Positions 4,414-39,074 of a stretch of DNA of 64,000 nucleotides are shown piece by piece. Origin of the DNA: Escherichia phage vB_EcoM-G3F7; sequence record MZ234035.1. One strand, given 5' to 3'. The notes beneath the pieces were generated by a model that was given only the letters and a program-made list of their open reading frames with translations, made no database searches and was not told the origin of the DNA. How positions within the stretch are numbered: position 1 is the stretch's first letter; each line of letters starts with the position of its first letter. The position numbers and the translations under genes were made by a program.

Positions 4414-5415
4414 ATGACTCGTAACGAATATATCAAATCATTCAATAGCGTTATTGATGATAAAGCTATACCGATGTTTGGCCAAAATAGCGTTCTTTCT
4501 ATTATCAATCAATGGCTCAATAGTGTTGATGCAAGTATTGTTTCTTCTACTAAATTTATTCATGAAATTCGTAAAATTTCTAGCCGTGTAGATAAAGATG
4601 TTATCAAGAAAACCTTTAAAGAGTCTCGTCTTCTTTCATATTTGGTTAATCGGGATATTCTTGGTAATTTTGGGAAAGAAATTAAACGAACTAAAGATGT
4701 AGTAGGATACAATTGGTTCGGTGATGTTAATTCTTATCATCTTAATATTAAAGAAGACCCTGAGAATATTTTTACTCGTCGTTGGATCAGTAATTTCAGA
4801 CTTTTTAAGAAACAAATTCTAAAATCAGCTTCTAAATTATGTTATGGCGATTATCGTCAAATTCATCCTTTGGCTTCTGATATGATTATCATAAAAGAAT
4901 ATGAACTTGATAAAAATAAAGTATCTATTTTTGTGAATTATGGATTTTTTACACCAGAAACTAACCAAAAGAATATTAATAAATTTTTCTCAATTGCTAG
5001 CACTATAACTCGTCAATTAGAGACCGCATTACTTTGTATGGAAACAGTAGAAAATATTCATACATATCCTTTTAAGAATATATGCGGTTGGGAAGGATAT
5101 AAACTCGTAATTAGCCTTCGTGAAGTGAAATGTGCTTATTCACCTACTGATAAAGAAATTTACCAACAAAAATGTGATGAAATTGTGAATACTCCTAAAG
5201 AAGAAACTACCCTTGAGGAACTAATGGAATGTCTTGATGATTCACCTGAACCGATAGAAATTCGTCCAGAAGTTATTGCACTAGAAAAAGCTTATAAAGA
5301 AGTTCTAGAAATTTCTAATAAAGCGCAGAAAGAATATGAGCAGGCTAAAAGGATTTGGGAAGAATCTGTTAATCGTCTTGATCGTCTGGAACAAGCTTTA
5401 CAGTTAATTAAGTAA
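4414..5415 (+). CDS. hypothetical protein with C-terminal coiled coil (paralog C)
   Basis: ATG at 4414 after GAGGAG RBS; shares FKKQILKSASKL core with paralog B; heptad tail. Confidence 0.6.
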   Translation: MTRNEYIKSFNSVIDDKAIPMFGQNSVLSIINQWLNSVDASIVSSTKFIHEIRKISSRVDKDVIKKTFKESRLLSYLVNRDILGNFGKEIKRTKDVVGYNWFGDVNSYHLNIKEDPENIFTRRWISNFRLFKKQILKSASKLCYGDYRQIHPLASDMIIIKEYELDKNKVSIFVNYGFFTPETNQKNINKFFSIASTITRQLETALLCMETVENIHTYPFKNICGWEGYKLVISLREVKCAYSPTDKEIYQQKCDEIVNTPKEETTLEELMECLDDSPEPIEIRPEVIALEKAYKEVLEISNKAQKEYEQAKRIWEESVNRLDRLEQALQLIK

Positions 5416-5467
5416 TTTAAAGCCAAGGATGGCTCGGAGTATAAATCATTAACCAAGTGAGAAGAAC

Positions 5468-6394
5468 ATGAAAACTCGTAAACATTATATTGATTATTTT
5501 GACAGTCTTATTACTAAACATCGTAATTATCAGATAGGACACAGAGCAGTAATCAATAATATTCTTCGTGATTTTTTAGACTATATTGGATGGGAAAACC
5601 ATATTTGTAAAGATACACAAAATGCGTATTCACATTCTCTTGGTTCTTTGCTCGAGTGGTTCAAACGTTCCCGATTACTATCTTCTGTGATAGCTGTTAA
5701 TAATGTTAAAAAATTTATGTATCCAAGCTACATTGAGACTAATGTATCAAATGCTAGTGTTGTTACATTTAATATTATTAACGACGTGAAAAGAACTTAT
5801 TTAGAAGAATGGTTTTCTAAAGATAGTAAAGAAAAATTTGCTAGTGAATTTTCACACGAATTCAATAATAACGTGAATATGCTTTTTAAGCATTCTCGTA
5901 GACTGTTTTGTCATGGTGATAACCGTACTATTAATGTGAATGTAAAAGACTGGGTTACGGCTAAATTCACTCCATCGTCCCAGAATGGGCAATTTGAATT
6001 GTCAATTATCATTTGTGCTCCGCACGAGATATATAAAAACCTTCCGTATATGAAACCACGCGAAGCTAATAAACACAATGAAACTATTAGTTCTTTGGCT
6101 TATAATTTACGCGTGTTATTATCTGATATGGATGTAGTCAAATCCTTTGATGATAATACGAATTATGGTCTTTCGCTGTTTGAAACTAAATTTGTTATTA
6201 AATTAAAGGACCCTAGTGAATTTAAACCTACACCAAAATCCAATCATGGAAATGATACTATGAAAGAAGAACGCGAATATCTCAGTGCCCGTTTGATTGA
6301 AGTTGAAAAACAGATTGAAGAGCATACTAAAGTTCTTAAGGCTTTAACCGCCAAAGCAAATGGTTTACGTAATGCTATTGAGGTATTGAAATGA
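5468..6394 (+). CDS. hypothetical protein with C-terminal coiled coil (paralog D)
   Basis: 308-aa ORF; heptad tail ...[31 protein letters not shown]. Confidence 0.6.
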   Translation: MKTRKHYIDYFDSLITKHRNYQIGHRAVINNILRDFLDYIGWENHICKDTQNAYSHSLGSLLEWFKRSRLLSSVIAVNNVKKFMYPSYIETNVSNASVVTFNIINDVKRTYLEEWFSKDSKEKFASEFSHEFNNNVNMLFKHSRRLFCHGDNRTINVNVKDWVTAKFTPSSQNGQFELSIIICAPHEIYKNLPYMKPREANKHNETISSLAYNLRVLLSDMDVVKSFDDNTNYGLSLFETKFVIKLKDPSEFKPTPKSNHGNDTMKEEREYLSARLIEVEKQIEEHTKVLKALTAKANGLRNAIEVLK

Positions 6395-12118: not shown

Positions 12119-12238
12119 ATTGAATTATATTATATTATGGATACTATAAATGATATGATTTTTCATTTTGGTCCAGAATTTTATTCCCAATATAGTTTAG
12201 TGCTTATCAATGCTTGGTTAATTAATTAAGGGTAAAAT

Positions 12239-12454
12239 ATGTATAAATTTCGTAAAGGTTTAGCTGATTTTCTTACAACTGTAACATTCTTTCTGTTTAT
12301 GGCAGTTGGAGCTATTTTCCTTATTCCTTTTATTGCTATATTTTTCGTGATTAGTTTAATTTCTCCAGAAAAGGGCTTATCTTCTAGTGAGTTTAATGAG
12401 CGTCTGGATAAAATTACTAACAAGCTGAATGCTGTTCTTGATAAAAAGGCTTAA
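12239..12454 (+). CDS. hypothetical membrane protein
   Basis: 71-aa ORF with one long hydrophobic helix. Confidence 0.45.
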   Translation: MYKFRKGLADFLTTVTFFLFMAVGAIFLIPFIAIFFVISLISPEKGLSSSEFNERLDKITNKLNAVLDKKA

Positions 12455-12456
12455 TT

Positions 12457-12768
12457 ATGATTAGTTTTGAGCGGTATGTAGTAGAGAGTTGGAATGGTTT
12501 TGATATGTTCGGTAATGACTATTATTTCTATGAATGTAGTCTGAACCCAAGCTTCTGGGCTGGACGTGAACAAGACCTCGAAGAAATCAACGCTCGTGCC
12601 GATTTGTTAGGTGAACTGCCTACTACTTATTTCACCTTTGATGAATCCGGCTTCGTTATCCAGGTTTATTTTCCTGAAGAAAACTCTGGTGAGGATTCTG
12701 TTAATCCTCCTTATTGGGCTTACCAAGGAATTATTTCTCGTGGAACAAAACTCGAACTTAAAGAATAA
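12457..12768 (+). CDS. hypothetical protein
   Basis: 103-aa ORF, acidic. Confidence 0.5.
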   Translation: MISFERYVVESWNGFDMFGNDYYFYECSLNPSFWAGREQDLEEINARADLLGELPTTYFTFDESGFVIQVYFPEENSGEDSVNPPYWAYQGIISRGTKLELKE

Positions 12769-13063
12769 GATTGAAGTCTATGGAATTCCAGATGAAGTAG
12801 GTCGTTGTCCTGGATGTCAATCAGTTACAAAACTTCTAAAGGAGCTCAATGCTCCTTTTACTTTCTATAAAGTTCTTACAAATAATGGTAAGATTGAGTA
12901 TGATCGTCCACTGATTGTATCTCTTGCTAAACGCGCTGGATTCACATCTCTTAGCATTCGTTATCCAGTCATTTTCATTAATGATTCTAGACAAAAGAAC
13001 ATTAAACACTTCAAAGAAACTCTCATTTCACTTGGATATGATAGAGATATCATAGAAGACTAA
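12740..13063 (+). CDS. nrdH: glutaredoxin-like protein NrdH
   Basis: CPGC redox motif; start uncertain (GTG 12740 after AAGGA, no in-frame ATG near N-terminus). Confidence 0.55.
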   Translation: MEQNSNLKNKIEVYGIPDEVGRCPGCQSVTKLLKELNAPFTFYKVLTNNGKIEYDRPLIVSLAKRAGFTSLSIRYPVIFINDSRQKNIKHFKETLISLGYDRDIIED

Positions 13064-13066
13064 GAC

Positions 13067-13090
13067 GGGCCCTCTGGGCCTTTCTTTCTC
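13067..13090 (+). terminator. intrinsic terminator after nrdH
   Basis: GGCCC-TCT-GGGCC hairpin followed by TTTCTTTCTC. Confidence 0.55.
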
Positions 13091-13160
13091 ACATTCTGTA
13101 TATTACCATTCTAAGCTATCGTTCCCTTCTTATCATTCCCTAAAATAATTTCACAAAGTT

Positions 13161-16396: not shown

Positions 16397-16420
16397 AGGA
16401 GCTTCGGCTCCTATATTGCT
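16397..16420 (+). terminator. terminator-like hairpin
   Basis: AGGAGC-TTCG-GCTCCT; weak T-run. Confidence 0.45.
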
Positions 16421-16440
16421 TTATAAATTTTTGGTAAAAT
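16416..16440 (+). promoter_or_regulatory. MotA-box middle promoter upstream of agt
   Basis: TTGCTTTA box, 11-nt spacer, TAAAAT. Confidence 0.5.
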
Positions 16441-16464: not shown

Positions 16465-17667
16465 ATGAAAGTATGTATTTTTATGGCTCGAGGTCTTGAA
16501 GGTTGCGGTGTAACTAAATTTTCTCTTGAGCAGCGTGATTGGTTTATTAAAAATGGTCATGAAGTAACTTTGGTTTATGCTAAAGATAAATCATTTACTC
16601 GTAATTGTGCGCATGATTATAAATCATTTTCAATTCCGGTTTTATTAGCAAAAGAATACGATAAAACACTTAAGCTGGTAAATGATTGTGATATTCTAAT
16701 TATCAATTCAGTTCCTGCTACTTCGGTTGAAGAAGACACTATTAATAACTATAAAAAAATTATTGATAACATTAAACCTTCTGTTCGTGTTGTAGTTTAT
16801 CAACATGACCATTCTTCTCTTTCTTTGCGCCGAAATTTGGGATTAGAAGAAACTGTTCGTCGAGCTGATGTTATTTTTAGCCATTCTGATAATGGTGATT
16901 TTAATAAAGTTCTGATGAAAGAATGGTATCCTGAAACAGTTTCTCTGTTTGATGATATTGAAGAAGCACCGACAGTATATAACTTTCAGCCTCCTATGGA
17001 TATTGCGAAGGTTCGGTCAACCTACTGGAAAGATGTTTCTGAAATTAACATGAATATCAACCGTTGGATTGGTCGTACGACTACATGGAAAGGTTTTTAT
17101 CAGATGTTTGATTTTCATGAAAAACATCTTAAACCTGCAGGACTAAGTACTATTATGGAAGGTCTGGAACGTTCTCCAGCGTTCATTCCTATTAAAGAAA
17201 AAGGAATTCCATACGAGTATTATCGTCTTCATCAAGTAGACCAAATTAAAATTGCTCCTAATTTGCCAACGCAAATTCTTGACCGTTATGTAAATAGCGA
17301 AATGCTTGAACGCATGAGTAAATCCGGATTTGGTTATCAGCTGAGTAAGTTGGACAAAAAATATCTACAACGTTCTTTAGAATATACTCATCTCGAGCTT
17401 GGTGCATGTGGAACAATTCCTGTTTTCTGGAAATCTACTGGCGAAAATTTAAAATTCCGTGTTGATAATACTCCTTTGACCTCACATGATAGCGGTATCA
17501 TTTGGTTTGATGAAAATGACATGGAATCAACATTCGAGCGTATTAAAGAATTGTCATCTGACCGAGCTCTTTATGACCGTGAGCGAGAAAAAGCATATGA
17601 ATTTTTGTATCAGCATCAAGATTCAAGCTTCTGTTTTAAAGAACAGTTTGACATTATTACAAAATAA
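16465..17667 (+). CDS. agt: DNA alpha-glucosyltransferase
   Basis: 400 aa; N-terminus MKVCIFMARGLEGCGVTKF...; length matches T4 alpha-gt. Confidence 0.85.
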   Translation: MKVCIFMARGLEGCGVTKFSLEQRDWFIKNGHEVTLVYAKDKSFTRNCAHDYKSFSIPVLLAKEYDKTLKLVNDCDILIINSVPATSVEEDTINNYKKIIDNIKPSVRVVVYQHDHSSLSLRRNLGLEETVRRADVIFSHSDNGDFNKVLMKEWYPETVSLFDDIEEAPTVYNFQPPMDIAKVRSTYWKDVSEINMNINRWIGRTTTWKGFYQMFDFHEKHLKPAGLSTIMEGLERSPAFIPIKEKGIPYEYYRLHQVDQIKIAPNLPTQILDRYVNSEMLERMSKSGFGYQLSKLDKKYLQRSLEYTHLELGACGTIPVFWKSTGENLKFRVDNTPLTSHDSGIIWFDENDMESTFERIKELSSDRALYDREREKAYEFLYQHQDSSFCFKEQFDIITK

Positions 17668-21003: not shown

Positions 21004-21027
21004 TGCTTTAATTTATTAGAGTATAAT
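21004..21027 (+). promoter_or_regulatory. MotA-box middle promoter
   Basis: TGCTTTA box, 11-nt spacer, TATAAT. Confidence 0.5.
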
Positions 21028-21044
21028 CTCTATGGAGGAAAAAC

Positions 21045-21233
21045 ATGGAATATTCAACTGGACAGCATCTATTAACTATTCCTGAAATAAAACGATATAT
21101 TCTGAGAAATAATTTTTCTAATGAAGAGCATATAGTTACTGAATCTATGCTTAGGAATGCATTTAAAGCAGAATATACAAAAATAATGTCCAATAGAAAT
21201 GAAGCTTGGACTGTTACTGATTATTATGACTAA
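21045..21233 (+). CDS. hypothetical protein
   Basis: 62-aa ORF after MotA-box promoter 21004-21027. Confidence 0.4.
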   Translation: MEYSTGQHLLTIPEIKRYILRNNFSNEEHIVTESMLRNAFKAEYTKIMSNRNEAWTVTDYYD

Positions 21234-21242
21234 AGGTGTATT

Positions 21243-21632
21243 ATGACTAAAATTACTGTGAATTATAACGTTGATGTAAAAGATATTCAGCCAAAACACG
21301 TGCGTTCTGAATCAAATCCACAAAACCAAAATAAAATTCGTCGAGCATGGGTTTTGTCTCTTTCTGATAACGCAATGGAAGTTATTCAGAACAAAATTAA
21401 ATCTGCACCTGCTCGTCATGCGTATTATGAAGCTATCGATCGTGAAGTAAGTAATAAATGGATTGAACTAATGCGCAAACATACTACAGAATCCCTAAAC
21501 GCCGGTGCTAAATTTATTATGACTTCATGTGGTGAACGTCTTGAAGATGATTATTGCGGTAATGCAGATGAACGTCTAATTGTTGCTGCTCAAATTGTTG
21601 CGGAAACAATTGCGGCTGATTTTAATCGTTAA
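21243..21632 (+). CDS. rpbA: RNA polymerase-binding protein RpbA
   Basis: 129 aa, position upstream of gene 45, length matches T4 RpbA. Confidence 0.6.
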
Positions 21633-21687
21633 TTGCTTTATTAAATTAGTTATAAAATTAAATCTCATTTGAATTGAAGGAAATTAC

Positions 21688-22374
21688 ATGAAACTGTCTA
21701 AAGATACACTGAATATTTTGAAAAATTTCGCTACTATTAACTCTGGCATTATGCTTAAATCCGGTCAATTTATTATGACTCGCGCAGTTAATGGTACAAC
21801 TTATGCGGAAGCAAATATTTCTGACGTTATTGATTTTGATGTAGCAATTTACGATTTGAACGGTTTTCTCGGTATTCTGTCTCTAGTTAATGATGATGCA
21901 GAAATTTCCCAGTCAGAAGATGGAAATATTAAAATTGCTGATGCTCGTTCAACAATTTTTTGGCCAGCAGCCGATCCGAGTACAGTAGTTGCTCCTAATA
22001 AACCAATTCCATTCCCGGTAGCATCTGTTGTTACTGAAATTAAAGCTGAAGACCTTCAACAACTGTTGCGTGTATCTCGTGGTCTGCAAATTGATACAAT
22101 TGCTATCACGGTAAAAGAAGGTAAAATCGTAATTAACGGTTTTAATAAAGTAGAAGATTCTGCTCTGACCCGTGTTAAATATTCTTTGACTCTTGGTGAT
22201 TATGATGGTGAAAATACATTTAATTTCATTATCAATATGGCAAATATGAAAATGCAACCAGGAAATTATAAACTTCTGCTCTGGGCAAAAGGTAAACAAG
22301 GTGCTGCTAAATTTGAAGGTGAACACGCGAATTATGTAGTAGCTCTTGAAGCTGATTCTACCCACGATTTTTAA
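21688..22374 (+). CDS. 45: sliding clamp gp45
   Basis: 228 aa; matches T4 gp45 length; followed by terminator hairpin. Confidence 0.9.
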   Translation: MKLSKDTLNILKNFATINSGIMLKSGQFIMTRAVNGTTYAEANISDVIDFDVAIYDLNGFLGILSLVNDDAEISQSEDGNIKIADARSTIFWPAADPSTVVAPNKPIPFPVASVVTEIKAEDLQQLLRVSRGLQIDTIAITVKEGKIVINGFNKVEDSALTRVKYSLTLGDYDGENTFNFIINMANMKMQPGNYKLLLWAKGKQGAAKFEGEHANYVVALEADSTHDF

Positions 22375-22377
22375 TAG

Positions 22378-22396
22378 AGGGCTTCGGCCCTTTATA
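22378..22396 (+). terminator. intrinsic terminator after gene 45
   Basis: AGGGC-TTCG-GCCCT followed by TTTAT. Confidence 0.65.
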
Positions 22397-22425
22397 ATTT
22401 ACACTAAAACTTGAATGAGGAAATT

Positions 22426-23385
22426 ATGATTACCGTAAATGAAAAAGAACACATTCTTGAACAGAAATATCGTCCATCTACTATCGATGAATGTATTCTT
22501 CCCGCCTTTGATAAAGAAACCTTTAAATCTATTACAAGTAAAGGTAAGATTCCACATATTATTCTTCATTCTCCTTCTCCAGGAACAGGTAAAACAACTG
22601 TAGCAAAAGCATTGTGTCATGATGTAAATGCTGATATGATGTTTGTAAATGGATCAGACTGTAAAATTGATTTCGTTCGCGGTCCTTTGACTAATTTTGC
22701 CAGTGCAGCTTCATTTGATGGTCGTCAAAAAGTAATCGTTATTGATGAATTTGACCGTTCAGGGCTAGCAGAGTCTCAGCGACATCTTCGTTCATTTATG
22801 GAAGCTTATAGTTCAAACTGTAGTATTATTATTACTGCTAACAATATTGATGGTATTATTAAACCACTTCAGTCACGCTGCCGAGTTATTACATTCGGTC
22901 AACCGACCGATGAAGATAAAATTGAAATGATGAAGCAGATGATTCGTCGATTGACTGAAATCTGTAAGCATGAAGGAATTGCTATAGCTGATATGAAAGT
23001 TGTAGCAGCTTTGGTTAAAAAGAATTTTCCTGATTTTCGTAAAACTATTGGCGAGCTCGATAGTTATTCATCTAAAGGTGTTTTGGATGCTGGTATTTTA
23101 TCACTGGTTACTAACGATCGTGGTGCTATTGATGATGTTCTTGAGTCTCTCAAAAATAAAGATGTTAAACAACTCAGAGCTTTAGCACCAAAATATGCAG
23201 CTGATTATTCGTGGTTCGTGGGTAAACTTGCCGAAGAAATCTATACACGCGTAACTCCGCAAAGTATTATTCGTATGTATGAAATTATTGGTGAAAATAA
23301 CCAGTATCATGGTATTGCAGCTAATACTGAATTGCATCTAGCTTATCTTTTCATTCAGTTAGCATGTGAAATGCAGTGGAAGTGA
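22426..23385 (+). CDS. 44: clamp loader large subunit gp44
   Basis: 319 aa from ATG 22426; Walker [11 protein letters not shown]. Confidence 0.9.
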
Positions 23386-28539: not shown

Positions 28540-29280
28540 ATGATTAACGATTATATGACAGTTGAAGAAATCCGTCTTGATTTGGGTCTTGCATTAAAGG
28601 AAAAAGATTTCGTAATTGATAAAACCGGGGTTAAAACTATTGAAATTATTGGTGCATCATTTGTAGCAGATGAACCTTTTATTTTTGGCGCTCTTAATGA
28701 TGAATACATTCAGCGTGAACTTGAATGGTATAAATCTAAGAGCTTGTTCGTTAAAGATATTCCAGGTGAAACACCGAAGATTTGGCAGCAGGTAGCATCT
28801 TCTAAAGGCGAAATTAACTCGAATTATGGTTGGGCTATCTGGTCAGAAGATAACTATGCTCAGTATGATATGTGTTTAGCTGAACTTGGTCAAAATCCTG
28901 ATTCTCGACGTGGTATCATGATTTATACTCGTCCATCCATGCAATTTGACTACAATAAAGATGGTATGTCAGATTTCATGTGTACGAATACAGTACAGTA
29001 CCTGATTCGTGATAAGAAAGTCAATGCAGTAGTAAGCATGCGCTCAAATGACGTGGTCTTCGGATTCCGTAATGATTATGCATGGCAAAAATACGTATTA
29101 GATAAATTAGTATCTGATTTGAATGCAGGCGATTCAACTCGTCAGTATAAAGCAGGTTCTATTATATGGAATGTTGGAAGTCTTCATGTATATTCTCGTC
29201 ATTTTTACTTGGTTGATCATTGGTGGAATACTGGCGAAACTCATATTGTGAAAAAAGATTATAACGGTGAGTGGAAATGA
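28540..29280 (+). CDS. 42: dCMP hydroxymethylase gp42
   Basis: 246 aa; thymidylate-synthase-like fold; matches T4 gp42 length. Confidence 0.9.
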   Translation: MINDYMTVEEIRLDLGLALKEKDFVIDKTGVKTIEIIGASFVADEPFIFGALNDEYIQRELEWYKSKSLFVKDIPGETPKIWQQVASSKGEINSNYGWAIWSEDNYAQYDMCLAELGQNPDSRRGIMIYTRPSMQFDYNKDGMSDFMCTNTVQYLIRDKKVNAVVSMRSNDVVFGFRNDYAWQKYVLDKLVSDLNAGDSTRQYKAGSIIWNVGSLHVYSRHFYLVDHWWNTGETHIVKKDYNGEWK

Positions 29281-30119
29281 TTCAATTCGTAATTCCAAGC
29301 TATCAACGCGTAGGGGCAGTTTCTGCCCTTGATATGTTTCCGACTGATTATGAACCACATATTGTAGTGCGTGAACACGAAGAAAAAGCTTATTATGATG
29401 CTTATGGGTCTAGAGCTAAAATTGTAACTATTCCTGATGATGTTAATGGAATTGCCGGTACTCGTAAAGCAATTACTGATATGTATGCAGGTCAACGAAT
29501 CTGGATGATTGATGATGATACTACTATTCGTATGAGTTCAATACGAAAGAGAGACGATAAACGGCGCGTAGATAAAATTAATCAATTAACTCGTGAACAG
29601 TTCTATGAATTAATTCAATACGTTGAGGATGCTATGGATTGCGGGTATTATCACGGTCATGCTCGTCTACCAATTTTTAAAATTACTTCATCTTGGGGTA
29701 ATTATCGTGAAAACTCATATGGATTCACGAATACATGGTATGACCTCGGAAAACTTACGACAGAACAAATTGGGTATGGAAAAATTGATTTATGTGAAGA
29801 TATGTACGCATTTCTCAATTTAATTAATCAAGGTTATCCGCATTTGGCCTTGTTCAAATATCTAGTTGTATCTGGAAAATCACACGCTCCCGGCGGGTGC
29901 AGTTCAATTCGTAGTAATTCTAAACATAATAGAGCGCTTGAACAAATCAATAGAGAGTTTCCAGAGCAAGCTCGTTGGAAAACTTCTAATATTGAAAAAC
30001 GAAAATCGTTGGGTGAAGAAGACGAGCCATTAAAGGTTCTTCGCATGTGTGTTTCTCGTAAAGAAAAATCAGAAGCATTTCATAAGTTTAATGCTATTCA
30101 TCCAATAGCAGTTGATTAA
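29277..30119 (+). CDS. putative GT-A glycosyltransferase at the beta-gt locus
   Basis: 280 aa from ATG 29277; DxD-like IWMIDDDTT motif; unlike T4 beta-gt sequence. Confidence 0.55.
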   Translation: MIQFVIPSYQRVGAVSALDMFPTDYEPHIVVREHEEKAYYDAYGSRAKIVTIPDDVNGIAGTRKAITDMYAGQRIWMIDDDTTIRMSSIRKRDDKRRVDKINQLTREQFYELIQYVEDAMDCGYYHGHARLPIFKITSSWGNYRENSYGFTNTWYDLGKLTTEQIGYGKIDLCEDMYAFLNLINQGYPHLALFKYLVVSGKSHAPGGCSSIRSNSKHNRALEQINREFPEQARWKTSNIEKRKSLGEEDEPLKVLRMCVSRKEKSEAFHKFNAIHPIAVD

Positions 30120-30196
30120 TGCCTAAATTTATTGTGTTATAATTACTCTATCTTTAACCAGTGAGGAAAATATAATGATGCCTATGGAAAAAATGA

Positions 30197-31378
30197 ATGT
30201 CTATTGCAGATTTAAAATCCCGTTTGATTAAAGCTTCCACTTCTAAAATGACTGCTGAGCTGACTACATCTAAATTCTTTAATGAAAAGGATGTAATTCG
30301 TACAAAAATTCCAATGCTTAATATTGCTATTTCTGGTGCGATTGATGGTGGTATGCAGTCTGGTTTAACTATTTTCGCAGGGCCTTCTAAACACTTTAAA
30401 TCAAATATGTCTTTGACTATGGTTGCGGCGTATTTGAACAAATATCCTGACGCGGTTTGTCTATTCTATGATAGCGAATTTGGTATTACTTCAGCTTATT
30501 TGCGATCCATGGGAGTTGATCCGGAACGTGTAATTCATACACCAATCCAGTCAGTTGAACAGCTGAAAATTGATATGGTGAATCAGCTTGAAGCTATTGA
30601 GCGTGGTGAAAAAGTTATTGTATTCATCGACTCAATTGGTAATATGGCTTCTAAGAAAGAAACGGAAGATGCCTTGAATGAAAAATCTGTGGCAGATATG
30701 ACTCGTGCTAAATCACTGAAGTCATTATTCCGTATTGTTACTCCTTATTTTAGTATTAAAAACATTCCATGTGTTGCGGTTAACCACACAATTGAAACAA
30801 TTGAAATGTTTAGTAAGACCGTGATGACAGGTGGTACAGGCGTAATGTATTCGGCTGATACTGTATTCATTATCGGTAAGCGTCAGATTAAAGATGGTTC
30901 TGATCTTCAGGGGTATCAATTTGTTCTAAATGTAGAAAAATCTCGTACCGTTAAAGAAAAAAGTAAATTCTTTATTGATGTTAAATTTGACGGTGGCATC
31001 GATCCTTATTCTGGATTGTTAGATATGGCTCTAGAATTAGGATTTGTAGTAAAACCTAAGAATGGTTGGTATGCTCGTGAATTTCTTGACGAAGAAACCG
31101 GTGAGATGATTCGCGAAGAAAAATCTTGGCGTGCAAAAGATACCAACTGCACTACATTCTGGGGTCCTTTATTTAAGCATCAACCATTCCGAGATGCTAT
31201 TAAACGTGCTTATCAGTTAGGTGCTATTGATAGTAATGAAATTGTTGAAGCTGAAGTTGATGAATTGATTAACTCAAAGGTTGAAAAATTTAAATCTCTA
31301 GAAAGTAAAAGTAAATCAGCTGCTGATTTAGAAACTGACCTCGAGCAGTTAAGTGATATGGAAGAATTTAATGAATAA
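30197..31378 (+). CDS. uvsX: recombinase UvsX (RecA-like)
   Basis: 393 aa; Walker A GPSKHFKS; near-identical to T4 UvsX as recalled. Confidence 0.95.
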   Translation: MSIADLKSRLIKASTSKMTAELTTSKFFNEKDVIRTKIPMLNIAISGAIDGGMQSGLTIFAGPSKHFKSNMSLTMVAAYLNKYPDAVCLFYDSEFGITSAYLRSMGVDPERVIHTPIQSVEQLKIDMVNQLEAIERGEKVIVFIDSIGNMASKKETEDALNEKSVADMTRAKSLKSLFRIVTPYFSIKNIPCVAVNHTIETIEMFSKTVMTGGTGVMYSADTVFIIGKRQIKDGSDLQGYQFVLNVEKSRTVKEKSKFFIDVKFDGGIDPYSGLLDMALELGFVVKPKNGWYAREFLDEETGEMIREEKSWRAKDTNCTTFWGPLFKHQPFRDAIKRAYQLGAIDSNEIVEAEVDELINSKVEKFKSLESKSKSAADLETDLEQLSDMEEFNE

Positions 31379-35212: not shown

Positions 35213-35409
35213 ATTAACCCAACTAAAGCAAATGCTAAATCTACGAATGTATCAAGAGTAACTACTGGAATACTAACGCCATGAGCAATAGCAACTGGCG
35301 ATAAAACAAAATTCCAAAGTAAAATTCCTATCATAGCAGTAATAGTAAAAGCTATACGTTTCTTATTACCTTTTATGGCATTAACAAGTGCCATTAATTT
35401 TTGTACCAT
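35209..35409 (-). CDS. small hydrophobic membrane protein, antisense to flanking genes
   Basis: 66-aa ORF; AAGGAGGA RBS 3 nt before ATG; two hydrophobic helices. Confidence 0.45.
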   Translation of the reverse strand: MVQKLMALVNAIKGNKKRIAFTITAMIGILLWNFVLSPVAIAHGVSIPVVTLDTFVDLAFALVGLI

Positions 35410-35422
35410 ATGTCCTCCTTAT

Positions 35423-35446
35423 TGCTTTATATATTTATTGTATAAT
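35423..35446 (+). promoter_or_regulatory. MotA-box middle promoter upstream of gene 56
   Basis: TTGCTTTA box, 11-nt spacer, TATAAT. Confidence 0.55.
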
Positions 35447-35482
35447 TAATCTACTAACCCATGAATTGAAAGGAAAAATAAC

Positions 35483-35998
35483 ATGCCACATTTCAACGAA
35501 TGTAGTCAACTGATCGAAGGCGCTGATAAAGCTCAAAATGAATATTGGGATATTCTCGGTGATGAAAAAGACCCGCTGCAGGTAATGCTTGATATGCAGA
35601 AATCTTTACAGATTCGTTTAGCAAATGACCGCGAATACTGTTATCATCCAGATAAATTAGAAACTGCCGGTGATGTTGTTTCTTGGATGCGTGAACAAAA
35701 AGACTGTATTGATGATGAATTCCGCGAACTTCTGACTTCTCTTGGTGAAATGTCACGTGGTGAAAAAGATGCATCGGCAGTTTGGAAAAAATGGAAAGCA
35801 CGTTATATTGAAGCGCAAGAAAAACGCATTGATGAAATGTCCCCAGAAGATCAGCTCGAAATTAAATTTGAGCTTGTGGATATATTTCATTTCGTATTAA
35901 ATATGTTTGCTGGCCTTGGAATGAATGCGGAAGAAATCTTTAAACTTTATTATTTGAAAAATAAACATAATTTTGAACGTCAAGATAATGGGTATTAA
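35483..35998 (+). CDS. 56: dCTP pyrophosphatase gp56 (MazG-like)
   Basis: 171 aa; matches T4 gp56 length; MotA-box promoter upstream. Confidence 0.85.
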   Translation: MPHFNECSQLIEGADKAQNEYWDILGDEKDPLQVMLDMQKSLQIRLANDREYCYHPDKLETAGDVVSWMREQKDCIDDEFRELLTSLGEMSRGEKDASAVWKKWKARYIEAQEKRIDEMSPEDQLEIKFELVDIFHFVLNMFAGLGMNAEEIFKLYYLKNKHNFERQDNGY

Positions 35999-36662
35999 AC
36001 AAAAATTTTATAGAACATATATCGTAAAAGTTAGGACGCCGAAAGGCGTCTTTTGGTACGCTGGGAAACATGAATCATTTATTGTAAATCCATATGATGA
36101 TAAATATCCGGGGTCAGGCAAAATACTATGGAACATATATCGTAAGTATGGTTTTAATTATAAAATACGTTGGTCAAAATGCCATGGTTCTAGAGAAAAA
36201 TCATATGAAGTTGAACGCGAGCTAATATCTGCATTAAAACGTAAACACCCAGATACTTGCATTAATATTTCTCCTGGTGGTCAGGGTGGAGAAGGAAGAA
36301 AATGGACTGAGCAACAACGATTAGAACATAAACTTAGATTAAACAATCCTGAAACAAAAACTCGGATGAAGAATTCACAACGTATAGCCCAAAATAGAGC
36401 AGAACGAAAAGCTCGGCAATCTGAAGTAATGAAAAAGTTTTATTCGAATGGCGGAAATAAAAAGATTTCAGAAGGAACTTCAAGGGCGCAAAGAAAAGCG
36501 CCGCATTGGCATGAACCGCTTAAAAGCGAAATACATGAGTTATGGGTTTCTTTAGGTAAACCAGCAACAGGCCCGGTTGTAAAGGCGCTTAAAGGAAAAT
36601 ATGATGTAACAAGTTCAGCTCTTAAGAATTTAATTTACTTATTCAGAAAAGAAGATGTATAA
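35988..36662 (+). CDS. segF: GIY-YIG homing endonuclease SegF
   Basis: 224 aa from ATG 35988; GIY-YIG-like N-terminus; between 56 and soc as in T4. Confidence 0.8.
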   Translation: MGIKQKFYRTYIVKVRTPKGVFWYAGKHESFIVNPYDDKYPGSGKILWNIYRKYGFNYKIRWSKCHGSREKSYEVERELISALKRKHPDTCINISPGGQGGEGRKWTEQQRLEHKLRLNNPETKTRMKNSQRIAQNRAERKARQSEVMKKFYSNGGNKKISEGTSRAQRKAPHWHEPLKSEIHELWVSLGKPATGPVVKALKGKYDVTSSALKNLIYLFRKEDV

Positions 36663-38259: not shown

Positions 38260-38412
38260 ACAAAGATATGACGTTAGAAGAGGCTAAAGCAAAAGCAAAT
38301 GAAGCATTGGATTTGCTTCTTAAAATTGGCAGTAAAATGATGGAAGAAAATGAGAAATATATCCAGGAAAACAAAATTCCTGACGGCCCATTAGTAGGCA
38401 AGAGGAAATCAC

Positions 38413-38883
38413 ATGATTGAAGTAGCAAAACATTATTCAATAGAATTTATGTCTAAAGAAGGTAAATCAGTAAATACACTTGACAAAAAGTGCTCGTTAA
38501 TTATTCCTTTAGCAGAAAATCCGGATATTTTAATTAAAGATATAAAAGAAAGAAAATACCCAGAAAATGTTATTCTAATTATAAAGCATACTGAAGATAT
38601 TTTGCAGAATACTGATTCACCGTTTTCTTCTTCTGAAGCTTTAACTATTAAAGGCTATAAAAGAGCTCATGAATATGGTCTTTTTGACCTGTTTGAAGAC
38701 GATAAAGTTAAATTAGCGAGTCAACCTTCTAAAAGTAAAACATTCATTATTGAAGATATTAAAGATATAAATGCATTCGTTAAGATGGTCTGGGCTCATT
38801 TTGATGTTGGACTACGCTGGAGAATGTCCGAAGAAGAAAGAAAGATTATTGAAGCTAATCGTCAATTTGGTTTTTATCGCTAG
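38413..38883 (+). CDS. hypothetical protein
   Basis: 156-aa ORF. Confidence 0.5.
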
Positions 38884-38891
38884 GAATTAAT

Positions 38892-39074
38892 ATGGATTTA
38901 TTTGAGATGTTAGAAGATAATCATTCTACGAATATCCAGAATGATTCTAGTGATTATAAGAAAGAGTACCGTATAGTATTACAGAATTATGGAATTGAAG
39001 CCCCAGATGCTCTTCTAGAAGAACTAGCTTCATACCATCTTGACCCTCCGCCTTGGGCTCCTTGGGCAAAATAA
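38892..39074 (+). CDS. hypothetical acidic protein
   Basis: 60-aa ORF. Confidence 0.4.
   Translation: MDLFEMLEDNHSTNIQNDSSDYKKEYRIVLQNYGIEAPDALLEELASYHLDPPPWAPWAK

Follow-up and report, generated by a model that had tools for sequence, protein, structure and literature searches.

The gene for beta-glucosyl-HMC-alpha-glucosyltransferase was reportedly first assigned to its enzyme, in phages T2 and T6, by Winkler and Rueger in 1993 in Nucleic Acids Res. Knowledge of the activity itself goes back to the early 1960s, according to later papers that cite Lehman and Pratt (1960) and Kuno and Lehman (1962). T2 and T6 carry no beta-gt, and in these phages a second transferase puts a beta-linked glucose on alpha-glucosyl-5hmC to give gentiobiosyl-5hmC (bioRxiv 10.64898/2026.02.25.707755, PMC13216743). 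The share of 5hmC that is gentiobiosylated is about 5% for T2 and about 72% for T6 (bioRxiv 10.64898/2026.02.25.707755, PMC13216743), and deletion of the transferase gene, g-gt, from T6 replaces gentiobiosyl-5hmC with about 75% alpha-glucosyl-5hmC (bioRxiv 10.64898/2026.02.25.707755). When DNA of phages Geo and BGP was hydrolyzed and analysed by HPLC/MS, 5hmdC, alpha-glucosyl and alpha-gentiobiosyl cytidines were found at about 1:2:2, and no beta-glucosyl form was found (PMC13390438). Geo and Solly fall into different modification groups, with Solly DNA containing about one-third hmC and two-thirds gentiobiosyl (PMC13390438). Papers from 2026 have analysed the family to which the second transferase belongs (TAGT), along with the GT-A fold and the distribution of that family. 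In T4, the slot downstream of gene 42 holds beta-gt instead, with segA between beta-gt and uvsX. UDP-glucose is the donor for both enzymes, and each makes a beta linkage on phage DNA, but T4 beta-gt is a GT-B protein whose acceptor is 5hmC itself, not glucosyl-5hmC. Both an alpha- and a beta-glucosyltransferase are encoded in 6 of 753 genomes (PMC13216743).

We analysed a window of 64,000 nucleotides (the whole stretch of DNA presented above) and compared it with the record of Escherichia phage vB_EcoM-G3F10 (MZ234038.1, Tequatrovirus), with which it is identical over record bases 15277-44119. From this identity, at matching coordinates, we take the window to be bases 1-64000 of the G3F10 genome. 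The locus is organized as follows.

28540-29280, plus strand: gene 42, dCMP hydroxymethylase (PF00303, thymidylate synthase family, 1.1e-15)
29266-29271, plus strand: SD-like GGTGAG, read from the sequence, 5 nt 5' of the ATG and within the end of gene 42
29277-30119, plus strand: ba-gt or g-gt (Pfam TAGT) open reading frame, 280 aa, 843 nt, predicted GT-A fold enzyme
30120-30143, plus strand: middle-promoter-like TGCCTAA-N11-TATAAT, near-consensus, read from the sequence, in the 77-nt spacer before uvsX
30197-31378, plus strand: uvsX recombinase, the downstream neighbour (PF21134, 4.7e-39; PF00154, 1.4e-10)

The original prediction of a 280-aa ORF that begins on the gene 42 stop codon held at these coordinates: the ATG (29277-29279) lies over the gene 42 stop TGA (29278-29280) in an ATGA overlap, and the ORF ends at TAA (30117-30119). 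The ORF listing also offers an in-frame GTG at 29271, two codons 5' of the ATG; the ATG is the start of the 280-aa ORF annotated in G3F10 (MZ234038.1) and in other phage records. The ATGA overlap implies that the ORF would be co-transcribed and translationally coupled with gene 42, and the GGTGAG sequence, together with its location within gene 42, likewise suggests translational coupling. From this coupling we infer early or middle-period expression alongside gene 42. The label dCMP hydroxymethylase is the one that gene 42 bears in the T2, T6 and T4 records, while RefSeq records name it 'thymidylate synthase'. Since the G3F10 record labels gene 42 'hypothetical protein' and the ORF merely 'glucosyl transferase', its annotation can be sharpened.

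The middle-promoter-like site at 30120-30143 has one mismatch to the pattern TGCTTNA-N11-13-TANNNT used in our scan, and it would mark the glucosyltransferase ORF as the last gene of a gene 42-TAGT translational unit. In phage Lutter, a 'promoter' feature is among the annotations under the match to the ORF. Scans around the ORF for sigma-70 promoters (11 matches against 10.4 expected) and for terminators (1 match against 0.9 expected) stayed at chance level. The only terminator-like match, at 29311-29331, is a 9-bp GC-rich hairpin (TAGGGGCAG-TTT-CTGCCCTTG) 34 nt into the ORF, whose bases are also present in T6; we left the terminator reading aside, given its place inside the coding region and the chance-level count. 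Minus-strand ORFs of 70-78 aa over the glucosyltransferase gene were likewise dismissed, as they show no gene-like signs and are unannotated in the G3F10 record. Base composition gave no sign of recent foreign origin, with a GC content of 0.365 in the ORF, 0.347 in the window and 0.36 in both neighbours.

The 843-nt ORF is 100% identical to the G3F10 gene at the same coordinates, 29277-30119. At the protein level it shares 97% and 96% identity, over 280 aa, with the T2 and T6 products, respectively, of the ORF that lies after gene 42 and before uvsX. It matches PHROG 842, 'beta-glucosyl-HMC-alpha-glucosyltransferase', over its full length (4e-88), and this is also the RefSeq name of the gene. 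PF20691 (TAGT, TET-associated glycosyltransferase) is the sole Pfam family matched, with 39.1 bits against a gathering cut-off of 27.5 (E=1e-9) and with residues 3-207 aligned on profile positions 2-205 of 205; NCBIfam has no model matching the protein. On the grounds of the T2/T6 identity, the shared locus, PHROG 842, PF20691 and the RefSeq annotation, we are highly confident that the ORF encodes the T2/T6-type beta-glucosyl-HMC-alpha-glucosyltransferase (ba-gt, g-gt; TAGT), which acts after a-gt to form gentiobiosyl-5hmC. The original prediction had assigned the ORF to a glycosyltransferase family and to the position of this very enzyme, and both the family match and the direct comparison with the T2 and T6 proteins bear it out. 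Identity and family, like the fold, the motif conservation and the gene context described below, are observations of the present analysis; the chemistry and product of the enzyme are taken from the literature.

The gene was found in 478 phage records, all at 90% identity or more, and 474 of them cover at least 80% of its length. Carriers are mostly Tequatrovirus phages of Escherichia, Shigella, Yersinia and Salmonella. These 474 full-length records at 90-100% nucleotide identity, together with 2158 representatives of the wider family, confirm that the ORF is a real conserved gene rather than a chance reading frame. The gene, with its canonical position and partner, is already known, ordinary and widespread, and its enzyme family has a name and has been characterized by experiment.

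A word-indexed search with the protein recovered 11 relatives, and a full profile search recovered the 2158 cluster representatives at E<=1e-3. For conservation analysis we used an alignment of 118 sequences that reaches down to about 17-20% identity. Five residues, R11, D80, D175, G186 and G207, are invariant in this alignment, and a further eight (I6, P7, R63, D79, D81, L180, G206 and R212) are conserved in at least 90% of the sequences. The codons of the principal motifs lie at the following positions.

29307-29309, plus strand: CGC codon of Arg11, an arginine kept by 118 of 118 family members; the residue is His in all T2 records
29511-29519, plus strand: (GAT)3, the codons of D79-D80-D81 (DxD motif), which come immediately after beta-strand 74-78 (RIWMI)
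29796-29801, plus strand: codons of E174-D175, the 'ED' motif, of which D175 is invariant

A search of PDB sequences with the ORF protein gave no relative (best E-value 1.6, to an unrelated protein). A first AlphaFold model, built on 10 close homologues, had a pLDDT of 68.9 and only marginal PDB matches (E about 1e-3), and was replaced by an AlphaFold2 model on the 118-sequence alignment, with a pLDDT of 95.0 and a pTM of 0.92. Foldseek matched the latter to 192 PDB entries at E<=1e-3, led by K4CP chondroitin polymerase, AvpGT, WrtF, TarS and TarP. The predicted structure consists of one alpha/beta/alpha domain of Rossmann-like type and resembles solved GT-A enzymes. The motif IWMIDDDTT (residues 75-83), on which the original prediction of a GT-A enzyme had relied, fits this fold: its aspartates follow the hydrophobic strand 74-78 in the model and are conserved among relatives, at D79 in 116, at D80 in 118 and at D81 in 116 of the 118 sequences. 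The GT2-like GT-A enzymes TarP, TarS, K4CP, AvpGT, WrtF and SpsA, and the base-J glucosyltransferase JGT, share with it the GT-A fold, an acidic 'ED' and a DxD preceded by a hydrophobic strand.

An R...DDD...EDY/F motif has been described for phage GT-A DNA glycosyltransferases, of which TarP and JGT are structural relatives (bioRxiv 10.1101/2023.12.21.572611). The R...DDD...ED arrangement in the family of our ORF corresponds to the pattern of these phage enzymes and of the trypanosome base-J glucosyltransferase (bioRxiv 10.1101/2023.12.21.572611). By analogy, we infer that DDD (79-81) would hold a divalent metal and UDP, a presumed role, and that E174/D175 would provide the catalytic base, for which it is a candidate, of an inverting GT2-like enzyme. 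Formation of a beta linkage from UDP-alpha-glucose requires an inverting enzyme, which is consistent with the GT2-like character of the closest structural relatives.

The size and diversity of the TAGT family, with its 2158 representatives, raise the question of whether this member has another specificity, such as bare 5hmC as acceptor or another sugar donor, particularly as many phages have a solitary TAGT and neither a-gt nor beta-gt, so that other acceptors must exist (PMC13216743). We consider this extremely improbable for the present ORF, which is 96-97% identical to the T2/T6 enzymes and has a-gt in the same genome. Moreover, the Geo protein is identical to that of the window and the Geo and BGP genes are identical in nucleotide sequence, and the DNA of these phages contains only 5hmC and its alpha-glucosyl and gentiobiosyl forms (PMC13390438).

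The original prediction had also named a-gt as the partner of the ORF, and the search for glucosyltransferase genes supports this. We extended it to the full genome of 167,867 bp, composed of the window and three further stretches of the G3F10 record. By tblastn, TAGT and a-gt are each present there in one copy, and no homologue of T4 beta-gt was found at E<=1 across the 167,867 bp. The a-gt gene and the promoter-like sites concerned are these.

16417-16440, plus strand: perfect fit to the middle-promoter pattern of MotA type, 25 nt 5' of the a-gt start codon
16465-17667, plus strand: a-gt, DNA alpha-glucosyltransferase (PF11440, 1.8e-237; same annotation in the G3F10 record)
21004-21029, 21634-21658 and 35423-35446: examples of further middle-promoter matches in the pattern scan

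The pattern TGCTTNA-N11-13-TANNNT matches 15 times in the 64-kb window against 4.3 expected, with 11 of the 15 matches on the plus strand and several, for example those of a-gt and the dCTPase gene, located just 5' of annotated starts. Within the window a-gt we also noted a run of seven adenines at 16753-16759 (gene positions 289-295). In T2, the adenine run of a-gt (gene bases 288-296) is reported to act as a contingency locus for frameshifting (PMC12633550); being shorter than that of T2, the window run may be less mutable.

In the proposed pathway, gene 42 would produce 5-hydroxymethyl-dCMP, which takes the place of dCMP in phage DNA, and a-gt, a GT-B enzyme, would transfer glucose from UDP-glucose onto 5hmC in alpha linkage. 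The GT-A enzyme encoded by the ORF would then add a second glucose from UDP-alpha-glucose, beta-1,6 on the first, yielding gentiobiosyl-5hmC. Virion DNA would be expected to contain a mixture of 5hmC, alpha-glucosyl-5hmC and gentiobiosyl-5hmC, without beta-glucosyl-5hmC. Such a sugar pattern would change the sensitivity of the DNA to host nucleases and to glycosylases that read the sugar; it bears on restriction of the GmrSD/BrxU type and on glycosylases of the Brig1/BapA type, as well as on the ease of cutting or sequencing phage DNA.

An enzyme placed immediately downstream of gene 42, where T4 has beta-gt, could also be pictured as a functional analogue of T4 beta-gt that puts beta-glucose directly onto 5hmC left bare by a-gt, and several records do carry the label 'putative beta-glucosyltransferase', which we regard as mislabelling. 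The probability of this is next to nil. As the original prediction had held, the protein does not resemble T4 beta-gt (BLASTP best E-value 4.1), and its predicted fold is GT-A as opposed to GT-B. Furthermore, phages with the TAGT gene have no beta-glucosyl-5hmC, and about 20-33% of their 5hmC is bare (PMC13390438). Labels are unreliable in both directions: the T4-type beta-gt of RB55 and RB59 is mislabelled 'beta-glucosyl-HMC-alpha-glucosyl-transferase', and the TAGT genes of KRT47, Sf22, teqskov and SH7 are mislabelled 'beta-glucosyltransferase'.

The further claim that the ORF replaces T4 beta-gt is right as a statement of synteny, though not of an event. TAGT is found in about 474 records, as against 29 in which a T4-type beta-gt reaches 95% identity or more. 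Most of Tequatrovirus has the TAGT arrangement, and the beta-gt of T4 is the exception. In the sister isolates MZ234027, MZ234030, MZ234034, MZ234037 and MZ234039, the position of the G3F10 TAGT (about 29295-30215) is occupied by a beta-gt-like gene with 64.7% nucleotide identity to T4 beta-gt, with 'glucosyl transferase' annotated under the match. Thus, the slot 3' of gene 42 is variable within one collection.

We then compared the window allele with those of T2, T6, Geo and Solly. With T2 and T6 it has in common the length of 280 aa, the position after gene 42 and before uvsX, overlap included, the a-gt partner and the conserved motifs. Seven residues set it apart from the T2, T6 and Solly-type alleles alike: V50I, I89M, K95R, R97C, I101V, S202A and H203Q, with the residue of the window given first. 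Each of these positions is variable within the TAGT family. The window allele keeps every family-invariant residue, including R11, and the DDD motif, and it has neither the R11H change of T2 nor the lesions of the T6 records. The TAGT genes of Geo and BGP, phages whose DNA has been analysed chemically (PMC13390438), are 100% identical in nucleotide sequence to the window ORF, with protein identity checked for Geo; the analysis of Geo and BGP DNA is the most direct evidence for what the window allele would make.

These comparisons bear on whether the gene might be weakly active or inactive, as it perhaps is in T2, so that the DNA would be essentially alpha-glucosylated only. The T2 protein is 97% identical and goes with about 5% gentiobiosyl-5hmC (bioRxiv 10.64898/2026.02.25.707755), and the gene has lesions in the laboratory sequences of T2 and T6. 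The window allele, however, retains all invariant residues, its frame is intact with a start coupled to gene 42, and the identical Geo/BGP allele is accompanied by about 40% gentiobiosyl-5hmC (PMC13390438). We therefore judge a weak or inactive enzyme to be very unlikely, and retain the assignment of an active T2/T6-type transferase.

In its a-gt protein the window matches Solly at every residue and departs from Geo at 33; between Geo and Solly themselves there are 33 residue differences in a-gt and 7 in TAGT. Judged from these sequences, G3F10 is a mosaic, a natural recombinant with a Geo-type TAGT and a Solly-type a-gt. Because of the 33 a-gt differences, the modification ratio of Geo and BGP is not transferable to the window phage, whose own ratio of hmC to glucosyl to gentiobiosyl is beyond what sequence can tell. 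In Geo and T2, a dam-like methyltransferase gene lies between the primase and dCTPase genes, whereas G3F10 has none there (regions compared: window 35213-36662, and 21207-22546 and 5203-5982 of the retrieved Geo and T2 stretches). A homing endonuclease ORF (35988-36662) directly follows dCTPase in G3F10.

The R11H change is present in all eight T2 or SV76 records (in T2 AP018813, codon 11 of the gene at 12283-13125 of the retrieved stretch, minus strand), and the exact 5' 60-mer of the T2 gene is restricted to these eight records. The nearest non-T2 alleles, those of teqskov and Bas44, retain Arg11. For T6, two genome sequences are available in three records, and each sequence has a different lesion. 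In MH550421 (gene at 101-943 of the retrieved stretch), codon 10 is the amber TAG instead of CAA, and the CDS is annotated from the internal Met20; AP018814 (= NC_054907; gene at 12135-12974 of the retrieved stretch) has lost one GAT of (GAT)3, a trinucleotide repeat that is a plausible slippage site. The T6 lesions may be laboratory-stock changes or sequencing errors. We considered the loss of one Asp in AP018814 (IWMI-DDTT) as a feature that sets T6, with its high gentiobiosyl level, apart from T2, with its low level, and rejected it: MH550421 has the full 843 nt with DDD, which means that the Asp deletion belongs to one stock or assembly.

What determines the mono- to di-glucosyl ratio in T-even phages is a loose end of some interest, for which allele comparisons are a cheap and testable lead. 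It is possible, though we hold it to be rather doubtful, that the TAGT alleles, and not a-gt or the expression level, set the extension to gentiobiosyl-5hmC. If so, R11H at an invariant arginine could explain the gap between the 5% of T2 and the 72% of T6, and the seven-residue 'Geo-type' allele could lie behind the intermediate 1:2:2 pattern seen in Geo, BGP and EL. G3F10, with its TAGT of Geo type and its a-gt of Solly type, has a DNA composition that would show what each of the two enzymes contributes.

Elsewhere in the window, three small ORFs at 38268-39074, beside the modA ADP-ribosyltransferase genes, are labelled 'molybdenum ABC transporter, periplasmic molybdenum-binding protein ModA' in the G3F10 record. 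This label is almost certainly a name collision with phage modA rather than a sign of a real transporter.
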